Shown: in pieces, positions 1 through 12,909 of the stretch
Layout of the letters: each line of letters opens with the position of its first letter
Numbering within the stretch: position 1 is the first letter of the stretch
Virus record (IMG/VR): IMGVR_UViG_2579779007_000005
DNA: 12,909 nt
Source of the DNA: a virus
Lineage: Duplodnaviria > Heunggongvirae > Uroviricota > Caudoviricetes
Reading direction: 5' to 3' (one strand)
Notes under the pieces: model-generated
Seen by the model: the letters and a program-made list of their open reading frames with translations, nothing else
Databases searched by the model: none
What the model was told of the DNA's origin: nothing
Translations under genes and position numbers: made by a program

Positions 1-163
1 AGTTTGCTCCTGCCATAACGTGAAGAAGCAATGACCTGATGGTCTGTGACTTCCCTACGCTGGCATTATCCAGATCAGGTGATACGGGTATTTCTTACTA
101 ATTTTTGTTATCAGTTGATAATTAATAAGTTTTTAAGCATATAAGAATTAAAAACCTCAAAAA

Positions 164-230
164 TGACCACACAACTGACCACACATTTCGTTGAAGCCCT
201 ACGAACAACGACGAACAATAACAAACAAAA
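164..230. repeat. Tandem direct repeats near the left end: TGACCACACA x2 and 10-bp-phased ACGAACAA x2 with a degenerate third copy
   Basis: TGACCACACA at 164-173 and 176-185. ACGAACAA at 201-208 and 211-218, followed by the degenerate ACAAACAA at 221-228. Confidence 0.4.
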
Positions 231-616
231 GGGAAATTTGCTGGCAGTTTTGCTTAACCGTTATCATTTTTCGGCTATCCGCTATGAAGCTGGTGGATGA
301 TCACGGATAATCCGTTATGTGGATCCCCATATCGGCATCAGGCCCACCAGCGTGAAGCGTTTTTCATTTTTCGCGGGTATAAAAAATCGATGGGGCTGGC
401 AGTCCAGAAGACGTCAGGGTACAGAGATTTGACCCGCCCCTCCCTGTGCATAAGCACAATAAGTAACCGAAGGCGGAATTCCGCCCTCGGTACTCATATA
501 TGAGAAACGATATTTCTTCCACCGATACCCTTTATTTGGGTATCGCGAGTAAGCCCCAAAATCTGGGTGTTACTCTTACTACCCAAACTACGGGTAGTTT
601 CCGTAGTTTCATGGTC

Positions 617-636
617 GAGTTGCAGATCTGCAACTC
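617..636. repeat. Perfect 20-bp palindrome GAGTTGCAGATCTGCAACTC
   Basis: Exact dyad symmetry centred on AGATCT, in non-coding DNA, with no flanking T-run so not a typical terminator. Nearby hairpins: CGATACCC-tttattt-GGGTATCG (524-546) and AAACTAC/GTAGTTT repeats (585-609). Confidence 0.4.
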
Positions 637-775
637 ACCCACCAGCGCAAGCAGAGCCACTAAATGATACGATATGAAGTGATACAAATCAGTAAACCAC
701 TTCAATTTTAAAAGACGCTACTCAACACAGTAAAGCGCCTTTTATTATTGTTTATATGCTTTCGAAAACACAAAT

Positions 776-798
776 AAAAAGCACCAGTATGGTGCTTT
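776..798. terminator. Bidirectional rho-independent terminator downstream of the 822-1130 cargo gene
   Basis: Plus strand AAAAA-AGCACC-AGTAT-GGTGCT-TTTGTGCTTTT: 6-bp stem (780-785 / 791-796), with an A-run on one side and a T-run on the other. Confidence 0.55.
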
Positions 799-821
799 GT
801 GCTTTTAACGAGTCCAAATAC

Positions 822-1130
822 CTAGTACTCAGGAAGATTTTCTAAATTATCCTTAGATGTACCATTGGCTCTAGTTGTAATGTAATCAATGTTGTTAACA
901 CGGTCTTTAACCACTTTTTGACCCTTCTTCCACTTACCGTCATCACCTATGAAAATGGTGTAAAACGTATAACCACTATCGATCTTATTCACTACCCACT
1001 GCCGTGTTTCTGATACCCCTCCCCCAACAGTATCCCCCTTATCAACATGCACATACACATGGGTAATGTGAGTGTGCTTGTCGTTATATCGGACTTTAGA
1101 AATAAGGTAATCAGCCCATTTATCAATCAT
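822..1130 (-). CDS. AT-rich cargo gene of unknown function (about 102 aa from ATG 1130; the ORF extends to a TTG at 1184, giving 120 aa)
   Basis: ORF immediately downstream of terL, with visibly lower GC than the packaging genes. The ATG at 1130 has a GGTGG SD-like sequence; the TTG at 1184 has AGGAAG at about 9 nt. Stop TAG 824-822 is followed by a terminator. No recognisable domain. Confidence 0.45.
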   Translation of the reverse strand: MIDKWADYLISKVRYNDKHTHITHVYVHVDKGDTVGGGVSETRQWVVNKIDSGYTFYTIFIGDDGKWKKGQKVVKDRVNNIDYITTRANGTSKDNLENLPEY

Positions 1131-1279
1131 ATTCCACCATAAGTTTGAACAGGAAAAGTCCTGCAATACTCTTATAAACAACAAAACAGCGGCTTCCTAC
1201 CCCACGATGGTAATATAGTGATCTAGAGCAATTTATATTTCCGATAACATCGATATAACCCCACATTTACACTCTATTC

Positions 1280-2941
1280 TCAAATCCCATTAAATAAAGC
1301 CAACCGTTCTTTGTGGCTATCGCTCATATCGAATGCAAATTCCTCATGCTCTGCCTGGAATGTGCCAAACGCCATCAGCGCCGCAACGCTCGGGTCTATC
1401 TTGTTGGATGATTTTTTCTTGTTCGGCTTGATATTGGCGTTCGCGTCACTCTGCATCACAACATTACTCATTGACCAAGCCATCACCGGATCACCACGAT
1501 GTACAATCACCTTCCGGTTAACAAAAACTTCGAACGATTTCGCCGCCGGACTGAAACGAAGGTATGTTTGCGGGAACGGCTCCACCTCAAATCCTGCACC
1601 CTGTAGCTGCGTCCTCAAGTGCGTGGCGTTCCATGTATCGAAGCCCACCAGCCTGATATTGAAATTCTCTGCATCCACCATGATGTCATCACGGATACGG
1701 TCATAATCAATGCAGTCACCCGGTGTTGTGCGTATCCAGCCCGCCTTTACCCACTGGCGATAGATGGCGCGGTTTTTATTGGCGGGGTTCTGTAGCTGAA
1801 ATTCTGGTAGATAGTGACGGGAAACCAGCATAATCTTTTTACCGACCGGGAAGGCATAGCACACGCTGGAAATATCGCTGGTTGATGATAAGTCCAGCCC
1901 CGCGTAGCACTCCTGCCCGTATAAATCCGCCTCCGCGAACGTTCCGGCGCACTCCGCCCATGCACCGTTACCCATCCACGGCGTAGCCCCCTGACACCAG
2001 ATATTGAATCGCTTGGTGAGCATTTCCACCCACTGCGACGGAATACCCCGCGCTTTCTGGATGGTTGAGGCCAGTTTTTCACGATCTACGGAAACATCGA
2101 TATTGGGATTCGCCTTTATCCACATCGCCGGATCGTCAACCTCGCTTTCATCATCCAGCTCATAAATCAGAACGAACATGGATTCGTTCACCTCTTCACC
2201 ATCCAGTATCTGGCAGCAATAGTCGTAGTGTTGTTTACAGGCTGAAACAACGTTGCTCCCCGATGTGGTGATGGCAAATAACAGCCCCTCTGGGCGTGCC
2301 CCCATTCCCAGTTCAAGCGCGGAATAAACACCGTTGTCAGGGTGCAGGTGATATTCATCCACAATGGCAAGGCTCGGGTTTGTACCTTCAATGGTTGCCG
2401 CTTTTGCTGCCAGCGGCTTTAACAGGCTGTTGGTTTTCGGGTGTATCACCTTGTGTGCCTGAATATTTACCCGCTTTCGTAACGGTCGGGATAAAAGGCA
2501 CATCTGACGCGCATCATCAAACACGATCCGCGCCTGATCACGACTCACGGCGGCGGTGTAAATATCCTGCTGCCCGTTTTCCATAACCAGAAACCAGTTA
2601 GCCAGGATAGCGGCGACCGTGGATTTGGCATTTTTTCGCGGTACTTCAATGAATGCGCTGGTGTATTTGCGCCGTCCGGTGGCCTTAACCTTAAAGCCCA
2701 GGATGCACGCAAAGGCGAACTGCTGCCACGGCTCCAGCTCAATGGGGCTACCACGCATTGCGCCTTTTACGTGCGGACACACCCTGGAAAAGGCAATAAA
2801 CCGCTCAACGACCTCCGGATCGAACGTGTAAAGGGGGTTTTCAAGGTCAGAAAAATACCGTTTAACGGCCTGTTTCAGTCGTTTACAGGCCGTAATTTTG
2901 CCGTTTTTTACGCCTTCTGCGTACTCATGCCAGGCGGTCAA
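1280..2941 (-). CDS. terL: Terminase large subunit, HK97-like (553 aa), apparently TTG-initiated
   Basis: Conserved N-terminal region WHEYAEGVKNGKITACKRL, Walker-like VPRKNAKST, and a C-terminal nuclease-like region. The most upstream in-frame start is TTG 2941-2939, preceded by GAGGA SD at a 5-nt spacer. There is no in-frame ATG/GTG before residue 63. It overlaps terS by 17 nt. Confidence 0.9.
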   Translation of the reverse strand: MTAWHEYAEGVKNGKITACKRLKQAVKRYFSDLENPLYTFDPEVVERFIAFSRVCPHVKGAMRGSPIELEPWQQFAFACILGFKVKATGRRKYTSAFIEVPRKNAKSTVAAILANWFLVMENGQQDIYTAAVSRDQARIVFDDARQMCLLSRPLRKRVNIQAHKVIHPKTNSLLKPLAAKAATIEGTNPSLAIVDEYHLHPDNGVYSALELGMGARPEGLLFAITTSGSNVVSACKQHYDYCCQILDGEEVNESMFVLIYELDDESEVDDPAMWIKANPNIDVSVDREKLASTIQKARGIPSQWVEMLTKRFNIWCQGATPWMGNGAWAECAGTFAEADLYGQECYAGLDLSSTSDISSVCYAFPVGKKIMLVSRHYLPEFQLQNPANKNRAIYRQWVKAGWIRTTPGDCIDYDRIRDDIMVDAENFNIRLVGFDTWNATHLRTQLQGAGFEVEPFPQTYLRFSPAAKSFEVFVNRKVIVHRGDPVMAWSMSNVVMQSDANANIKPNKKKSSNKIDPSVAALMAFGTFQAEHEEFAFDMSDSHKERLALFNGI

Positions 2942-3281
2942 GCTCGTCCTCTTCCTCTGTTTCCGGTGGATTTCTGCGGCGGCTTACCGGGTCAAAACCC
3001 AGCAAAGAAGCCATTTTGATCATTATTCTTTCTGCGTCAGCCTTTGCGCTCAGTGCGGGGTTTCTGCTCTCGCTGCCCTGACTGTTAACAATGCTGAACC
3101 CGCGCGTCGCAAGGTCTTCGACGGCTTTGCGGTATATGGAGTAGTTAACACAATACAGTTCCAGATTGCTCCAGTCGGCGGGGGTAAGGTCTTCCCGCCC
3201 GGAAAGCTGGCGCGATTTTTCCTTCCACTGCCTGACCGCGATTTCATCCAGGTAAGCGGGGGCTTTTGGTGGTCTTGCCAT
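2925..3281 (-). CDS. terS: Terminase small subunit (118 aa)
   Basis: The start is taken as the internal ATG 3281-3279 (MARPPKAPAYLDEIAVRQWKE...) rather than the ATG at 3422, because the upstream 47 codons read like AT-rich intergenic DNA. P27-type TerS-like N-terminus and acidic C-terminal tail (ETEEEDELDRLA). Stop TGA 2927-2925 overlaps terL. Confidence 0.75.
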   Translation of the reverse strand: MARPPKAPAYLDEIAVRQWKEKSRQLSGREDLTPADWSNLELYCVNYSIYRKAVEDLATRGFSIVNSQGSESRNPALSAKADAERIMIKMASLLGFDPVSRRRNPPETEEEDELDRLA

Positions 3282-3332
3282 GTTCTTTTTTCGTCCAATT
3301 ATTTTCAAAAAAATTACTGTGCACAAAAATTT

Positions 3333-3392
3333 GAGGGGGCGGTCGGTGTCCGGCAGGGACGGTTTCGTCCTGAAAACCACCCCCACCCCCTC
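3333..3392. other. Candidate cos/packaging-site element in the HNH-terS intergenic region
   Basis: Inverted repeat GAGGGGGCGG (3333-3342) / CCACCCCCTC (3383-3392) with one mismatch, flanking the palindrome GGACGgtttCGTCC (3357-3370). It lies 50-110 bp upstream of terS inside a 288-bp non-coding gap (3282-3569). Confidence 0.3.
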
Positions 3393-3569
3393 TGACGGCC
3401 TCACCAGCGATTGCGAAAACATTCCATGACCTCGCGGTCACGGTCGGTTAATCGCTTCGCTGTGGTGCGTTTTGTGCGCCCTGTCCTGTTGGCTTTGTGC
3501 TCTGTCTCCTGTGTCTTCCATGTGTCACGCTGCCTTATCAGTCCACGTATCAGCCTGGTTTGCTCCTGT

Positions 3570-4010
3570 TCAGTCATCATCACCATACATCCAGTCGTTA
3601 CGGTGTGCCGCCCGTTCTTCCTGCTCGCGATACATGCCCGCTTTACGGTTTGCTTTCGTGGCTGGATCTTCCCATGTCGTCTTACGGTTGTGGCACGTCT
3701 GGCACAATGCCTGGTGATTCCACTCAGGCCAGAAGAGAACATCACCGCCGCCATTGATGGGAATGATGTGATCCACCACAAGAGCTGGTGTATAAATACC
3801 CTTAGCCAGACAACGCACGCATAACGGGTTTTTGCTCAGGTACAGGGCGCGGTATTTGTCCCACTGTCGGGAATACCCACGTGCGCGGCGGTGTCCCCGT
3901 CTGGCATCCTCTGCACGCCATGCAGCCCGCCTGTGCTCTTCACACTTGCCGGACTTCACGCGCTTATTACAGCCCGGCTCAGTGCATCGCCTTAATGGTT
4001 GCCACGGCAT
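3570..4010 (-). CDS. HNH endonuclease, terminase-associated (146 aa)
   Basis: HNH/zinc-finger motifs: CVRCL...DHIIP...N...H...CQTCHNRK and N-terminal CTEPGC...C. It lies directly upstream of terS-terL, as in HK97-like cos packaging modules. Confidence 0.85.
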   Translation of the reverse strand: MPWQPLRRCTEPGCNKRVKSGKCEEHRRAAWRAEDARRGHRRARGYSRQWDKYRALYLSKNPLCVRCLAKGIYTPALVVDHIIPINGGGDVLFWPEWNHQALCQTCHNRKTTWEDPATKANRKAGMYREQEERAAHRNDWMYGDDD

Positions 4011-6129: not shown

Positions 6130-7275
6130 TTACTCACCAGCCTGAATTTCCAGAATCTTGATGGCGTTCGAATCCACCACACCACCGCCCAGATATTTCT
6201 GGGTATAGATGTTAATGAATCCGGGTTCGCTGAAGTCCGGACGGGTACGCGTACCGGTTTCATGGTCAACGATGAAATAACCGCGCTTAAAGTCACCTAC
6301 TGCAATCACACCGTCCGGAATAAATTCCAGATATTCAACCGGAAGCCCCAGCAGAGAATCAGGATCACCAGCCTGTAAACGATCGCGCCAGATGTAATCA
6401 CCAGTGGCATTTTTCAGTTTTTGTGCGGAGGCGGCTGTATTTGAGTTCATCACCCATACAGCTTTTTTGCGGTACTTATTGCGCAGCGTAAATTTCAGGT
6501 CAATCAGCATGTCGGCGCTGAGACTGCCAGTAACTTTTTTCGTCTGGAGCGTACCGAAAGGACGGGTTTTGTCGTTATCCGCAGTGCGCGGGAACGCCAG
6601 GAAACCTTTAGCTTTTTTCTCGCCATCACCGGAAACCAGATCCGTTTCTTCGGTATCAACGAAAGTGTCGCCAATTTCAGAAGATAACCAGCTCATAATA
6701 TCGACTTCGGAAAAATCGATAATTTCCTGAGTGGTTTTCGGGTAAGCGTAGATCGGATACAGGCGGATGCTGACTTCGTTCAGTTTCGGCGTTGCCGTCT
6801 GGTTACGTGCCGCACCTTCCTCGCCATGCTCAACCACCGCGCCACCAGCGGAAACCAGTTGCTTAAATTCATTGCTGTGAATGGTTTTAACAGTACAGAT
6901 TTTACGCATCACCGATTCATCAGAAAGCTGACGCATAATTTCTCTGTTCAGTTCCGGGATAACCGTATAACCACCATCAGCCGGGACACTGCCGGACAGG
7001 TTGCGGGTTTCCCCGGTCAGAATGTAAGAGCGCAGTTCGTCTTTGGTGATTTTCTCTTCGACGGAAACACCTGGCTGGTTACGTTCTTCATCCGCAACAG
7101 CTTCAAGACGGGAGATTTCTGTGTCGAGGGAATCGGCTTTTGCACGCAGTTCATCAAACTGTTTGCCCTCGTCATCGTTCAGGCTGCGGTTTTCACTGTC
7201 GGCTTTTTCCAGCAGGGAGCGCATCTGGTTTTTCAGGGCGTTTTTTTGCTGGCGGAGTTCGATTAATTTCTTCAT
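6130..7275 (-). CDS. HK97-fold major capsid protein with an N-terminal coiled-coil delta (scaffold) domain; 381 aa
   Basis: The N-terminus MKKLIELRQQKNALKNQMRSLLEKA...ISRLEAVADEERN is a typical helical delta domain, followed by an HK97-like body. ATG at 7275 is chosen over the in-frame TTG 7362 and ATG 7350 on homology-type grounds; the start is uncertain. Stop TAA 6132-6130. Confidence 0.85.
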   Translation of the reverse strand: MKKLIELRQQKNALKNQMRSLLEKADSENRSLNDDEGKQFDELRAKADSLDTEISRLEAVADEERNQPGVSVEEKITKDELRSYILTGETRNLSGSVPADGGYTVIPELNREIMRQLSDESVMRKICTVKTIHSNEFKQLVSAGGAVVEHGEEGAARNQTATPKLNEVSIRLYPIYAYPKTTQEIIDFSEVDIMSWLSSEIGDTFVDTEETDLVSGDGEKKAKGFLAFPRTADNDKTRPFGTLQTKKVTGSLSADMLIDLKFTLRNKYRKKAVWVMNSNTAASAQKLKNATGDYIWRDRLQAGDPDSLLGLPVEYLEFIPDGVIAVGDFKRGYFIVDHETGTRTRPDFSEPGFINIYTQKYLGGGVVDSNAIKILEIQAGE

Positions 7276-7465
7276 GAAGGTTTTCTCGTATTGGTTAAGA
7301 TTCAGGACGTGAAACCAACACGGAGGGAGCGCGCCCGACACTCCCGGCATCTCGCAGATCAACCCAGCATCGCGCAGGGGTCAGGCGGCATTGTGGCGGC
7401 TCACGTCTGAGTGCCACGCTCCAACATATACATAAAAATCAGTATGTAAACACCTGTCAGTCAGA

Positions 7466-7493
7466 CCGAACAACCACGAAAGAACACGAACAA
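7466..7493. promoter_or_regulatory. Three 10-bp-phased direct repeats (CCGAACAA / CACGAAAG / CACGAACAA) between the divergent capsid and cargo promoters
   Basis: CGAACAA at 7467-7473, CGAAAGA at 7477-7483 and CGAACAA at 7487-7493, spaced one helical turn apart. The same ACGAACAA motif recurs in tandem at 201-218. Confidence 0.35.
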
Positions 7494-7497
7494 ATAA

Positions 7498-7528
7498 TTT
7501 ACAAAAGAAGTAAACCATGGCCTATTAT
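7498..7528 (+). promoter_or_regulatory. Candidate sigma70 promoter of the 168-aa cargo gene
   Basis: -35 TTTACA (7498-7503), 19-bp spacer, -10 TATTAT (7523-7528). The spacer is long, so this is tentative. Confidence 0.3.
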
Positions 7529-7559
7529 TGCTGTCTCTGACTACAACAAAGGACGCATC

Positions 7560-8066
7560 ATGAATTTAAGCGCAATGGCATACCCTGATACTTTCATAAT
7601 TAATGGCGAATCATTCAGAGGTAAAAGAAACGCAAAAGAAAACAAGGTATTAATTCCATATACAAATGAACCGGAAGTAACTATTGGTCAACACATTATC
7701 CAGCGTGTCGGTAAAAACGAGATAAATCTAAAAATTATAGATATGAAGTTGCTTCCCAATGGAACCCTCAGACAGGGAACCAACCATCCAAATATGTTGA
7801 CTCTCTATATTGAAAATATCACGGGAAATGAACATATGACGCCAACTAAAAGTAATACATTTAACATTGGTTCAATTAGTGGTGATCAAGTGCAGATAGG
7901 TGAGCATAACCATATGCTGGTAAACATCAGCATCACTGAACTGGTTGAAAAAGTCGCTAAATCGGGGGATGTACAAGCCAAATCAGTATTAAAGCAGTTA
8001 CTGGAAAACAGTACCGTTGCCAGCATTGTTGGGGCTGGCGCAAGTGCCCTAATAGGCTTACTGTAA
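7560..8066 (+). CDS. AT-rich cargo gene of unknown function (168 aa) with a C-terminal hydrophobic Gly/Ala-rich tail; candidate accessory or defence-type effector
   Basis: ATG 7560 with AAGGA SD at a 6-nt spacer. It is the only substantial plus-strand gene in the island and is visibly more AT-rich than its neighbours. The C-terminus STVASIVGAGASALIGLL looks like a glycine-zipper membrane segment. It is bounded by its own promoter region and a terminator. Confidence 0.7.
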   Translation: MNLSAMAYPDTFIINGESFRGKRNAKENKVLIPYTNEPEVTIGQHIIQRVGKNEINLKIIDMKLLPNGTLRQGTNHPNMLTLYIENITGNEHMTPTKSNTFNIGSISGDQVQIGEHNHMLVNISITELVEKVAKSGDVQAKSVLKQLLENSTVASIVGAGASALIGLL

Positions 8067-8072
8067 AAAAAT

Positions 8073-8093
8073 GGCCTGGATTTTACCAGGCCT
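8073..8093. terminator. Bidirectional rho-independent terminator between the convergent 82-aa gene and the 168-aa cargo gene
   Basis: Stem GGCCTGG (8073-8079), loop ATTTTAC, stem CCAGGCC (8087-8093), flanked by AAAAAAA upstream and TTTATTATTTT downstream on the plus strand. Confidence 0.55.
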
Positions 8094-8101
8094 TTATTAT
8101 T

Positions 8102-8350
8102 TTACCGTTTCACGGGATCGCGCATTCTGCGCCTTATTTTCCACAGATATTCGATCATTGCTTCCACCTGCTCACGGTTGGTTGCGAAAATTTCCCCGGT
8201 CAGTGAGCTACGCAGAAAATCATGATGATCCACAAAAAACAACGCATCGGAAGAAAGCAGACGGCGATATTTTTTTGCTGTCATGGTTTCCAGATCATCA
8301 AAATCATGAAACTTTTTATGTTGCTGGACTTCTTCAAATGTCACTGGCAT
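8102..8350 (-). CDS. Hypothetical protein (82 aa)
   Basis: ATG 8350-8348 preceded by a G-rich SD (minus strand CAGGGGGGGG); stop at 8102, followed by a hairpin terminator at 8073-8093. Confidence 0.5.
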   Translation of the reverse strand: MPVTFEEVQQHKKFHDFDDLETMTAKKYRRLLSSDALFFVDHHDFLRSSLTGEIFATNREQVEAMIEYLWKIRRRMRDPVKR

Positions 8351-8367
8351 GCCCCCCCCTGTTGTCG

Positions 8368-8793
8368 CTAAAACGGTATGTTGTCCCCGTACGGATCATC
8401 GTGCTGACCCGTCTGCTGTTTTGCCCTGTTCAGTGCGTCAGTCGCCTGGTTCTGCTGGCCTTTTTTGCCGCCTGGTCGCACCGTTCGCGCACTGATTACG
8501 CTGTCTGCGATAACCTGCCAGCCTTGCCGAGTTTCGCCGTTCTGGCCTGTCCACTGACTTACCTGCATGTTACCCGCCACGCTCACCAGTTCGCCTTTGT
8601 GGTGTTTTGCCAGTGCTTCGGCCTGTCTGCCAAACGCCAGAACAGAAAGCCACATCGTCACCGCACCATCATCAGCCTGACTGCATGGCAGGGGTACTGC
8701 CATACTTACCATCGCCATTTGTGTACCCTTGCTGGTGGTCTTTAACTGCGGGTCATTTGCCAGCCGCCCGTAAGCGGCTATCTGTGCTGTCAT
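8368..8793 (-). CDS. ssb: Single-stranded DNA-binding protein (SSB)-like, 141 aa
   Basis: ATG 8793-8791 with GGAGGG SD. OB-fold-like N-terminal segment (IAAYGRLANDPQL...WLSVLAFGRQAEALAKHHKGELVSVAGNMQVSQWTGQNGETRQGWQVIAD), a Gly/Gln-rich linker, and a C-terminal ...DDPYGDNIPF resembling the SSB acidic DDDIPF tip. Confidence 0.65.
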   Translation of the reverse strand: MTAQIAAYGRLANDPQLKTTSKGTQMAMVSMAVPLPCSQADDGAVTMWLSVLAFGRQAEALAKHHKGELVSVAGNMQVSQWTGQNGETRQGWQVIADSVISARTVRPGGKKGQQNQATDALNRAKQQTGQHDDPYGDNIPF

Positions 8794-9322: not shown

Positions 9323-11140
9323 TTAATTTTTGCTATCGTCATTAGTGACCGATACACATGATGGCATCCAGTCTTCTGATTCCTCCGTCAGTGTCACGTT
9401 TGAACGCAAACCGTGCTTCGTTTTCCGTTTCATATACTCCCTGCCATATTCCGCCATTGCCCCCGGCATATCTTTACCGAAGCGCGTCAGTGTTACAGGT
9501 TTACCAAACCCATGTGCCCTCATATAAGCCAGATAGGCATGATAGAGATACCTGCGTGGGCTGAATGGCACAATTTCAGCATTACCCACTAACAGGCCAT
9601 CACACATTACCGACGCCATGAGATAGCCGCAGAAGTCCACCAGCGAATCCCCCTCTCGCTTTATCGCCAGTGCTTCTTCAGATTTCTGCTGCTCATATAA
9701 CAGGCGTCTGGCTTCGTCCTGGTTAGCAAACCGTGTAAGCAGATGGCGAATCACTACCGCCAGCTCACCTTCTATTTTTTCCGCCAGCATTGGATCACGT
9801 TCGTTCTCCGGTACAACTTCCGAAAAATTGAATATCACCCGACGACGTGAGATCCCCCCGCTGCGGTCACTGAATGACATGGCGTTATTGTTAACCGCCA
9901 GCACTACTGCCGGAATACGCGTTGAGTAGGGGGCTTTGTGTTTCGGGTCAATTGCCACCTTGTCACCGCCTGTAATAGCCTTAATCCCTGCCCCATCACC
10001 AGCGTAGCGGGTCATATCCGGCATGATAATCAGCGAAAAGCCAACCACTAACGCGCGTTCCCTTGCATCTTCCAGCGCCTTCATGCTTGCCGATACTGTG
10101 TTGGCCTTACCCGCCAGCATGGTGCAAATCTCCGCCATCACGCTTTTACCACTTCCCCCTGGACCTGTTACCTCAATGAATAACTGCCAGTCGTACCGGT
10201 TCGCCAGCACCATGAATAATGCAGCCAGTACGCGATCCGCCTTGCGGTCATTCTCAGCCACCGAACGGCGTAACCACTTCCAGAAATTCGGCGCATGTGT
10301 TGCCAGCGTTTCCCCCTCTGCTGGTGGGCTGAAAGGTAATTCACTGGCAATTAACAACCAGTCGTTTTTGTTATGCTCCCGAAAATTACCTGTTCTGGTA
10401 TCAAATACCCCGTTACTGAATCCAATCAGGTTACGGGCTGTATTCCCCATTACAGGCAAACTTAACTTCATGGTATCGACCGCCGATTTAATGGCGTTCT
10501 GCGAATAGCTGATCTCCGCATCAATGAAAATCTGTGCCATAGCTCGCTGTAATTCTTTATCCTGTACTGGCTCCCATACAACGCCGTTGTAATGGTGAAC
10601 AGTGTCAGAGTCAGCATGAATCGCCAGTTCACCGCCATAATGTGCCAGGAGAACTTCGCCGCGTTGACTTGCTCCCATCTGGTTAAGCGCCAGTGATGAA
10701 GCGTTATCGTCTTTTACCCGCTCTTTTTTCTTTACAGGCAGTTCAACTACCTTTTTCTTTTCCGCCTGCTCTGCCCGTTCACGTTCCAGATATTCGCGCC
10801 AGTTCTCCCGTTTCTGGCTGTGCATTCCTTCAGGGTAATAATCAGCATCCCTGACACCTGCCACTGCCAGTTTCTGCCCGATGGTATTAACAAGCCCCGG
10901 ACGCAATAACCCCGCCTGATAGAGACGCACGCGATAGCGTCCGTCCGGTACGATTTGCAGGTTGTCCAGTTCGGCAAGTTGTTGCTCTCCAAGCCAGACA
11001 GGTGGCACGTTATCGCCAGCCAGTCGCCCGTCCTGTTCCTGCCACTGTTTCGCATGTGCCCACGCATCACTACCCGCAAAAATGATGACTTCCGTCATTT
11101 TGTCACGCGGCTGGTGTTTTAAATTTGGCGCTTTTTTCAT
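9323..11140 (-). CDS. P4-family primase/helicase-type replication protein (D5-like NTPase C-terminal domain); 605 aa
   Basis: Walker A GPGGSGKS and a Walker B-like LVVGFSLIIMPD are typical of the phage/plasmid primase P4-family C-terminal domain. The ATG at 11140 has a GGAGAG SD and ATGA coupling to the upstream gene, and is preferred over the GTG at 11155 listed in the ORF track. An iteron array lies immediately 3' of the gene. Confidence 0.85.
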   Translation of the reverse strand: MKKAPNLKHQPRDKMTEVIIFAGSDAWAHAKQWQEQDGRLAGDNVPPVWLGEQQLAELDNLQIVPDGRYRVRLYQAGLLRPGLVNTIGQKLAVAGVRDADYYPEGMHSQKRENWREYLERERAEQAEKKKVVELPVKKKERVKDDNASSLALNQMGASQRGEVLLAHYGGELAIHADSDTVHHYNGVVWEPVQDKELQRAMAQIFIDAEISYSQNAIKSAVDTMKLSLPVMGNTARNLIGFSNGVFDTRTGNFREHNKNDWLLIASELPFSPPAEGETLATHAPNFWKWLRRSVAENDRKADRVLAALFMVLANRYDWQLFIEVTGPGGSGKSVMAEICTMLAGKANTVSASMKALEDARERALVVGFSLIIMPDMTRYAGDGAGIKAITGGDKVAIDPKHKAPYSTRIPAVVLAVNNNAMSFSDRSGGISRRRVIFNFSEVVPENERDPMLAEKIEGELAVVIRHLLTRFANQDEARRLLYEQQKSEEALAIKREGDSLVDFCGYLMASVMCDGLLVGNAEIVPFSPRRYLYHAYLAYMRAHGFGKPVTLTRFGKDMPGAMAEYGREYMKRKTKHGLRSNVTLTEESEDWMPSCVSVTNDDSKN

Positions 11141-11436
11141 TTCTGCTCTCTCCACGCGGCAATCATGTTTTTCAGTTCCTGTAGTTTTTTATCAACATCC
11201 ATACATGACACATGGTTATTTCTGGAAAGCGGGATTTCCCGCCTGAATCTGCTAATAAAGATCTCCACGTTCAGCGAACTATGAAATGAATAGCCATCAC
11301 GAATAAAATACACACGGTCAAACATCAGTTCTTTTACCGTTACTCTGTTACCGTTCTTATCCAGATAAATAGCGCCGGGGATAATTTTGGGGTGTGCATA
11401 ACCGCTGGCAGTCAAGCCAGATAAATATGTTCTCAT
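11137..11436 (-). CDS. Hypothetical protein (99 aa)
   Basis: ATG 11436-11434 lies 6 bp after the upstream stop, with a GGGGA SD-like sequence. Its TGA (11139-11137) overlaps the primase ATG (11140-11138) in an ATGA arrangement. Confidence 0.55.
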   Translation of the reverse strand: MRTYLSGLTASGYAHPKIIPGAIYLDKNGNRVTVKELMFDRVYFIRDGYSFHSSLNVEIFISRFRREIPLSRNNHVSCMDVDKKLQELKNMIAAWREQK

Positions 11437-12684: not shown

Positions 12685-12909
12685 CTACGCTGCCTTACCT
12701 GAATTAACGCGGTCACGGCTTTGCACCCAGTCCATAACTTCGGAAAGCAACCAGCCTACAGAACGCCCCCCAAGATTACGGCGAGACGGAAAGCCCCCTT
12801 TCTTCTCCAGTTCGTAGCGTGTAGTACGGCTGACGCCTGTTAACTTACGACATTCATCCTCACGAATTACGCGATCTGTTAGTGATTGAAATTGTGTATT
12901 TTGATTCAT
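12685..12909 (-). CDS. alpA: AlpA-family (Xis-like winged-helix) transcriptional regulator; its ATG is the last 3 bases of the window, so the N-terminus could extend beyond the edge
   Basis: 74-aa ORF ending at TAG 12685-12687. The segment LTGVSRTTRYELEKKGGFP...GGRSVGWLLSEVMDWV matches the HTH plus Trp-containing wing pattern of prophage AlpA/Xis-like regulators. It sits at the head of the replication genes, as in PICI-type islands. Confidence 0.7.
   Translation of the reverse strand: MNQNTQFQSLTDRVIREDECRKLTGVSRTTRYELEKKGGFPSRRNLGGRSVGWLLSEVMDWVQSRDRVNSGKAA

Follow-up and report, generated by a model that had tools for sequence, protein, structure and literature searches.

The gene analysed here occupies positions 822-1130 on the minus strand of a 12,909-nucleotide stretch of DNA (the window) and follows the large terminase gene terL (1280-2941, minus; Pfam TerL_ATPase and TerL_nuclease). 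The window represents the right-hand part, 12.9 kb, of a capsid-forming phage-inducible chromosomal island (cf-PICI) from E. coli. On the minus strand, it carries alpA (12685-12909), a D5-type primase gene (9323-11155) and, in its regulation/replication part, an icd-like gene, a DUF4222 gene and an SSB gene. Seven packaging genes with Pfam matches, also on the minus strand, are arranged in the order major capsid (6130-7362), prohead protease, portal, head-tail connector, HNH (3570-4010), P27-family terS (2925-3422) and terL. This gene order matches that described for proteobacterial cf-PICIs (10.1101/2022.09.08.507074). No tail or lysis families could be found among the window ORFs scanned. 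The PICI core is represented by AlpA and the D5-type primase within the window and by a tyrosine integrase situated just beyond it in E. coli A41. Positions 1-3000 of the window are 99.9% identical to this strain, in which the island lies between thiM and rcnR with the integrase at its end.

The island sits inside the thiM TPP riboswitch (window 35-169, minus strand, core 82-95; positions 26666-26765 of the A41 locus L001). A TPP aptamer remnant adjoining thiM scored 34.3 bits, which is below the gathering score of 54.3, and the same island in E. coli A41 has a weaker fragment, of 18.9 bits, at its integrase end; a 14-nt core, ATACGGGTATTTCT, is common to both island ends. Since the island is integrated in this riboswitch, thiMD regulation may be altered in island carriers. 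A tandem motif, TGACCACACAAC-TGACCACACAT, is found near the thiM end (164-190); the identical 27-mer is present near the integrase end of the A41 island (L001 26566-26592), and a diverged version in the clpS-site island. This motif may be a candidate for arm-type recombinase binding sites.

Region 330-665 is unannotated and strongly structured, with a z-score of -6.8 for the minus-strand RNA fold and a terminator-like hairpin at 466-491; no Rfam match was obtained for it. With 758 places in 672 of 5426 E. coli genomes, a larger number than that of genomes with this terL, it is conserved in the species; the thiM and clpS islands have it in common, and it was not encountered in loci from other genera. 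A sub-part (approximately 519-641) is found alone elsewhere, e.g. in O157:H7, and twice in a sister island (L003), which suggests a palindromic repeat or MITE-like element. Three plus-strand ORFs of 45, 68 and 55 aa (163-300, 297-503 and 500-667) are joined by ATGA start/stop overlaps, as in translationally coupled operons, and showed no Pfam, PHROG, NCBIfam or PADLOC matches. RefSeq annotates nothing in this region in A41; in two sister genomes it calls a 90-aa hypothetical protein at the position equivalent to 31-300. A second AT-rich variable region (7400-8100) lies between the capsid gene and the SSB and primase genes. It contains a plus-strand ORF of 168 aa (7560-8066, phrog_5789, GC content 38%) that is missing from the otherwise near-identical A41 island, and its position is that of the 'new accessory region next to pri' where Tai anti-phage genes have been reported (PMC11364771). 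The neighbouring plus-strand ORF 8071-8745, antisense over the SSB gene, is probably spurious.

At the locus under study, a mechanical ORF extends over 822-1184 (minus) and yields 120 aa if read from TTG, while the coding sequence from ATG 1130-1128 to the stop codon TAG 824-822 encodes a stand-alone protein of 102 aa. A preceding sequence-only reading of this DNA had called its function unknown, a description that no longer wholly applies since the protein is a DUF3892 domain. The Pfam match (PF13031) has an E-value of 9.6e-10 and a score of 39.2 bits against a cut-off of 22.3, and covers residues 10-100 and profile positions 2-71 of 71; the subfamily of the window carries an insertion relative to this 71-position profile. 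The 102-aa protein also matched phrog_32719 with an E-value of 3e-54, and its homologue set at E<=1e-19 comprises 48 proteins. Compared to three diverged copies (E. coli 873.10, Klebsiella and Morganella), dN/dS values of 0.07-0.21 were obtained, with synonymous sites near saturation, indicating strong purifying selection across genera. Based on both profile matches, the 48 homologues and these dN/dS values, the ORF is real, far beyond chance.

The start codon, described earlier as ambiguous between TTG 1184 and ATG 1130 (102-120 aa), could be assigned by comparison. RefSeq calls an identical 309-nt coding sequence at the same coordinates in E. coli A41 (WP_024226535.1), and the N-terminus M-x-x-KWADY is shared by all 30 aligned homologues. 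Five of the eight cassette copies have an in-frame TGA two codons 5' of the ATG (GGTGAAATATG); the window has TGG at this codon, so a single substitution (TGA to TGG) would have opened its frame back to TTG 1184. Based on the start of the 30 homologues, the upstream TGA codons and the RefSeq annotation, ATG 1130 is assigned as the true start and 822-1130, not 822-1184, as the coding sequence. A Shine-Dalgarno-like GGTGG, read from the sequence, is situated at 1134-1138 (minus), 3 nt before this ATG; in its place, five copies have GGTGA and Pectobacterium has GGAGG. A longer product, of 120 aa from TTG 1184 or 114 aa from TTG 1166, would fit the open frame of the window up to 1184 and the length of the phrog_32719 profile, which has 114 positions and is entered by the 102-aa protein at position 13. 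It is nevertheless very improbable, as the equivalents of ATG 1130 are used throughout the homologues, the TGA codons lie in its path in most copies, GGTGG is placed for the ATG, and TTG 1184 falls inside the spacer of the putative promoter described below. The 120-aa form was rejected based on the homologue starts and the TGA codons. A 47-aa ORF overlapping the leader (1123-1266) was discarded as spurious, having no family match and a 5' part that is unconserved in the Klebsiella, Pectobacterium and Pantoea copies.

ATG 1130 is located 149 nt downstream of the terL stop codon. The position after terL stands as first described, but the close coupling of the two genes does not, since a conserved 149-nt leader separates them. 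Within this leader, the inverted repeat GCAGGA-CTTT-TCCTGT (1149-1164, minus) could form a 5'-UTR stem-loop or serve as an operator. A hairpin was found at this site in 8/8 copies, each folded alone, and both arms have changed to match in the Pectobacterium (GCAGAA/TTCTGC) and Pantoea (CAGC/GCTG) copies. The covariation is weak and not significant, with one pair changed on both sides, a count reached by 49 of 500 shuffles, and a claim of RNA structure was dropped for this reason. Upstream of the hairpin, a weak candidate for a sigma-70 promoter is formed by TAGGAA (1199-1194) and TATAAG (1176-1171) with a 17-nt spacer (1171-1199, minus); its assignment is drawn from conservation, the position of a TATA(A/T)(A/G) box and a (T)GGGAA/TAGGAA block being kept in the eight copies. 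A consensus scan found no sigma-70 promoter in the leader at its threshold, and for that reason expression in the lysogenic state is something we infer. In the Klebsiella hpt-site islands, the preceding gene is divergently oriented, which requires a promoter belonging to the DUF3892 gene itself. A distal conserved block, TTGCTCTAGATCACTATATT (1212-1231, minus), is possibly a regulator site, and its TTG(N7)TCA(N)T pattern is kept in 8/8 copies from four kinds of genomic context. The leader stays with the gene in all four, one of which has the divergent upstream gene.

Downstream, a terminator scan identified an intrinsic terminator with a 9-bp stem and a 3-nt loop followed by TTATTTGTGT (778-798, minus), 23 nt past the stop codon. 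A hairpin with a U tract occupies this position in 8/8 copies, with stem sequences that differ between them, in agreement with the earlier proposal that the gene carries its own terminator. The same scan found no terminator between terL and the DUF3892 gene, so read-through from the packaging operon is likely after induction.

Region 822-1130 has a GC content of 39.2% and the block 666-1290 one of 37.1%, compared to 49.5-56.2% across terL, terS, HNH, portal, protease and capsid genes; the lower GC noted before in relation to the packaging genes is thus borne out. DNA alignment with four sister thiM-site islands (L002-L005) defined the whole replaced block, i.e. the cassette with its flanks, as 666-1290 (minus). 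The block joins the island within the final codons of terL on the right and near 650-666 on the left. Where the window has this block, the sister islands have a gene of 93-95 aa (WP_001353111, phrog_1561) which starts 5 nt past terL (e.g. L004 2290-2571). A 73-aa relative (L011 6300-6521) follows the TerS-like gene of Klebsiella hpt-site PICIs that also hold DUF3892, and the displaced gene may be a conserved PICI late gene.

The sequence-only reading had placed an accessory gene in the slot after the last packaging gene, naming a comparison of gene content across related islands as the way to check this and conservation in all related elements as the outcome that would speak against it. The comparison showed that the slot is variable. 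Of 5426 complete E. coli genomes, 532 contain a terL of the window type, with 577 places in all, and a DUF3892 gene is next to it at 15 of these places; among 80 loci from other species with TerL proteins 70-92% identical, no DUF3892 gene was present within 4 kb of terL (0/80). The distribution is therefore the opposite of general conservation, and in related islands the gene is swapped for others. In the 80 loci, the slot is occupied by a phrog_1561 gene (8 loci), a lambda tail-I-like protein, tail-fibre genes, PD-T7-4 (DUF4145), PDC-S13 (Bro-N), PDC-S15 (FRG), PDC-S49 or unknown genes. A few of these 80 loci are complete prophages. Some of the TerL relatives that are 72-79% identical (L078, L085 and L089) are followed by Baseplate_J, tape-measure or tail-U genes and are probably prophages, and several Xenorhabdus loci (L052, L062, L063 and L082) have tail-fibre genes directly after terL.

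Based on this distribution, the idea that the cf-PICI lineage keeps the gene as a conserved late part of its packaging or head-completion module was rejected, and we assign very little probability to it. Such a role would agree with the orientation shared with terL, the position directly after it with no terminator between, and the recurrence of the gene behind terL in E. coli, Morganella and Klebsiella modules of the cf-PICI type. The counts of 15/577 and 0/80 argue against it, as do the sister islands, whose terL is 96-98% identical to that of the window and is followed by unrelated genes in the slot, and so do the presence of the cassette in non-packaging contexts and its essential absence from phage genomes: the gene was present in one of 50,697 phage records, and that one is a 1.9-kb fragment. 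It is well supported instead that the gene belongs to an autonomous accessory cassette, which entered the 3' variable region of the cf-PICI by recombination and is kept there by selection.

In complete E. coli genomes, the DUF3892 block is present in 18 of 5426 and adjoins terL in 15 of these 18. The ORF together with a leader of approximately 100 nt and the terminator follows terL in islands at thiM (the window and A41), at clpS (L006) and at fis (E. coli 873.10, L007, and Morganella, L022), and also in a Klebsiella cf-PICI-type module whose record was deposited as a plasmid (L023). The cassette is the last gene of Klebsiella hpt-site PICIs (L009-L016), with the divergent gene upstream; it stands alone beside fis in Pectobacterium (L017-19), and is found in Pantoea elements with three integrase-like genes (L021 and L116). 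A classification of the Klebsiella hpt-site islands as P4-like satellites was discarded, as PHROG matches indicate a PICI with TerS-like and tail-fibre genes. In E. coli Ec1120 (L008 8999-9244), an 81-aa protein named 'DUF3892 domain-containing protein' in RefSeq (WP_072752455.1) is encoded beside a BREX-1 island and IS debris. It is a 5'-truncated remnant, whose homology to the cassette starts only mid-gene.

The 102-aa protein is hydrophilic and soluble by computation, with a GRAVY value of -0.75 and a pI of approximately 7.9. No signal peptide or membrane segment was predicted in it, no enzymatic or effector domain could be recognised, and no partner gene was found in the window. The AlphaFold2 model, based on an alignment of 30 sequences, reached a pLDDT of 91.7 and a pTM of 0.82, and predicts three strands, one helix, three further strands and an ordered C-terminal tail with DNLxNLP. 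Foldseek searches with this model gave nothing significant against the PDB (best E-value 0.44), and comparison with the BFVD viral library gave nothing significant either (best E-value 0.17). PDB sequence and profile searches with the protein also yielded no significant match, and the DUF3892 fold is therefore one without a solved representative. In 30 homologues, residues D94, N95, L96, N98, L99 and P100 are invariant and all proteins end in PE[FY]; the C-terminal DNLxNLP corresponds to the family motif DNLxxLP. K4, W5, D30, R43 and W67 are further invariant positions. An interpretation of the NLPE[FY] end as a mimic of the SSB tail was dropped, as the tail is ordered in the model (pLDDT 87-91) and no other support for mimicry was found.

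A profile search placed 1519 representative clusters at 50% identity in the DUF3892 family, nearly all of them stand-alone proteins of approximately 100 aa, and their range extends from Enterobacterales to Lactobacillales and haloarchaea. Homologous genes reside in defence-type neighbourhoods; this is guilt by association, read from individual loci. Among more distant homologues (50-82% identical), one is situated between type I and type IIG restriction-modification systems, and another is flanked by a Gabija-like pair of OLD-type ATPase and UvrD helicase on one side and by a further OLD-type ATPase on the other. Others adjoin a type ISP restriction enzyme (restriction-modification) and PemK, or AAA_13, an FRG protein and a cytosine methylase with HNH, or SEFIR/TIR, reverse transcriptase or DUF4238 cargo. 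In Lactiplantibacillus, the neighbours of the plasmid-borne DUF3892 gene are TIR and SIR2 genes and a HigB-like killer gene. Two contexts, the lone Pectobacterium copy and the P0037 loci, have no recognisable defence neighbours. In one metagenomic relative (P0089, 451 aa), AbiJ_NTD5 and TIR domains are fused to a C-terminal DUF3892, which puts DUF3892 where sensor domains sit in TIR-type defence proteins. Searches of PADLOC-DB 2.0 with both the 102-aa and the 120-aa forms gave no match at E<=0.01, and those of NCBIfam gave only a chance-level match far below cut-off.

Burroughs and Aravind reportedly predicted DUF3892 in 2020 as a conflict-system domain. In the literature searched, DUF3892 is mentioned by seven papers, which offer predictions and no experimental study of it. 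The domain has been predicted to be linked to defence and occurs in operons controlled by CapH/CapP (Lau et al. 2022). Its core, a three-stranded meander and a helix, has been likened to dsRBD and to HPF, ribosome hibernation factors, and the domain also occurs fused to Min-Wnt effectors (10.1101/2025.01.14.632903). RNA or the ribosome was proposed as its target by Aravind's group. [quoted passage not shown] 2022, describes PICI ends as immune hotspots.

The best explanation of the locus, to which we give somewhat less than an even chance, is a self-contained cassette whose DUF3892 product interferes with competing phages. The moron-type cassette consists of approximately 100 nt of conserved leader, the 102-aa DUF3892 gene and the intrinsic terminator, and recombination has placed it in the variable 3' end of the cf-PICI, between terL and the attachment site. 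Neither capsid formation nor DNA packaging involves its product, which would be a small soluble binding protein without enzymatic activity. While the island is integrated, the gene is probably expressed from its own weak putative promoter, and after induction probably also by read-through of the packaging operon. The DUF3892 protein could then bind an infection-associated target, be it RNA, the ribosome or a phage protein, and by this binding interfere with competing phages or sense the infection, which would make the gene defence cargo of the satellite. This anti-phage reading is based on the defence neighbourhoods, the TIR fusion, the PD-T7-4 and PDC genes in the same slot and the literature on immune hotspots.

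Anti-defence and other mobile-element genes also gather in such islands, which counts against the defence reading. A counter-defence factor, or one that manipulates host or helper to aid the establishment or spread of the satellite, might neutralise a host immune sensor or modulate the helper phage rather than protect the cell. A small single gene with own expression signals at the extreme end of several kinds of mobile island, lacking an effector domain, often adjacent to restriction-modification systems and open to co-transcription with the late packaging operon after induction, would suit such a role. We consider it unlikely, since the domain is fused elsewhere to defence-type effectors (TIR with AbiJ_NTD5, and Min-Wnt) and its CapH/CapP control is damage-inducible, like that of other defence operons. 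Moreover, anti-defence genes are common in bona fide phage genomes, from which the gene is nearly absent, and the pI of approximately 7.9 is not acidic like that of DNA-mimic anti-restriction proteins.

Less probable still is a neutral selfish passenger, or else a factor of the growth-arrest or addiction type, which would persist through linkage to the ends of mobile islands and not through a benefit against phages. The lone persistence next to fis in Pectobacterium, the truncated remnant beside the BREX island of Ec1120 and the HigB-like killer gene adjacent on the Lactiplantibacillus plasmids are in line with this. A passenger is hard to reconcile with the low dN/dS across genera at near-saturated synonymous sites and with a family that is large and ancient, and no antitoxin-like partner gene or membrane segment accompanies the protein.

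For the cassette with an interfering product, the preferred reading, several known systems offer comparison. The window protein is like the Pfam DUF3892 family in its match over residues 10-100, its stand-alone form of approximately 100 aa, its C-terminal DNLxNLP and its defence-type neighbourhoods. It lacks the effector to which the domain is joined in the Min-Wnt and TIR fusions. Unlike the CapH/CapP-regulated DUF3892 operons (Lau et al. 2022), the window has neither an HTH/metallopeptidase pair nor a second DUF3892 gene; no metallopeptidase family was found among the window ORFs scanned, and the neighbours of the gene are terL upstream and non-coding DNA downstream. Like the immune cargo at the 3' end of PICIs, the gene lies after the last packaging gene and before the attachment site, is sporadic, has a foreign GC content and is swapped in relatives, whereas it matches no described defence-system model. 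The single-gene anti-phage protein PD-T7-4 (DUF4145) is also small and takes the equivalent slot after terL, but has no sequence or fold relationship to the DUF3892 protein.

Phage morons are autonomous transcription units between conserved late genes, defined in lambdoid and HK97-like phages. The cassette resembles them in that it comprises one gene, ends in a terminator of its own and has a leader that seems independent, in a GC content below that of its neighbours and in its presence or absence between near-identical genomes. It differs in residing in a satellite, not a phage, and in having a promoter inferred from conservation.

The DUF3892 domain had already been catalogued and the PICI hotspot was known, so that the novelty is modest in these respects. 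New are the role of DUF3892 as mobile, ready-made cargo of cf-PICIs and other islands, the resolved start codon and the defined boundaries of the cassette. With its 309 nt, its native expression signals and its origin from E. coli, the gene is cheap to test. If no effect on phages were seen, the locus would still be a clean example of the exchange of terminal cargo by satellites, with one junction in the last terL codons. More broadly, stand-alone DUF3892 could represent a widespread single-protein, non-enzymatic anti-phage or infection-sensing module, shuttled as a promoter-gene-terminator cassette among satellites, plasmids and defence islands, a generalisation that we regard as rather unlikely; the copy in the window would then offer an E. 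coli example open to direct testing. If the gene proves protective, it would be the first defined cargo of such type for the cf-PICI 3' variable region, and a very small, effector-less and structurally uncharacterised family would join the bacterial immune repertoire.
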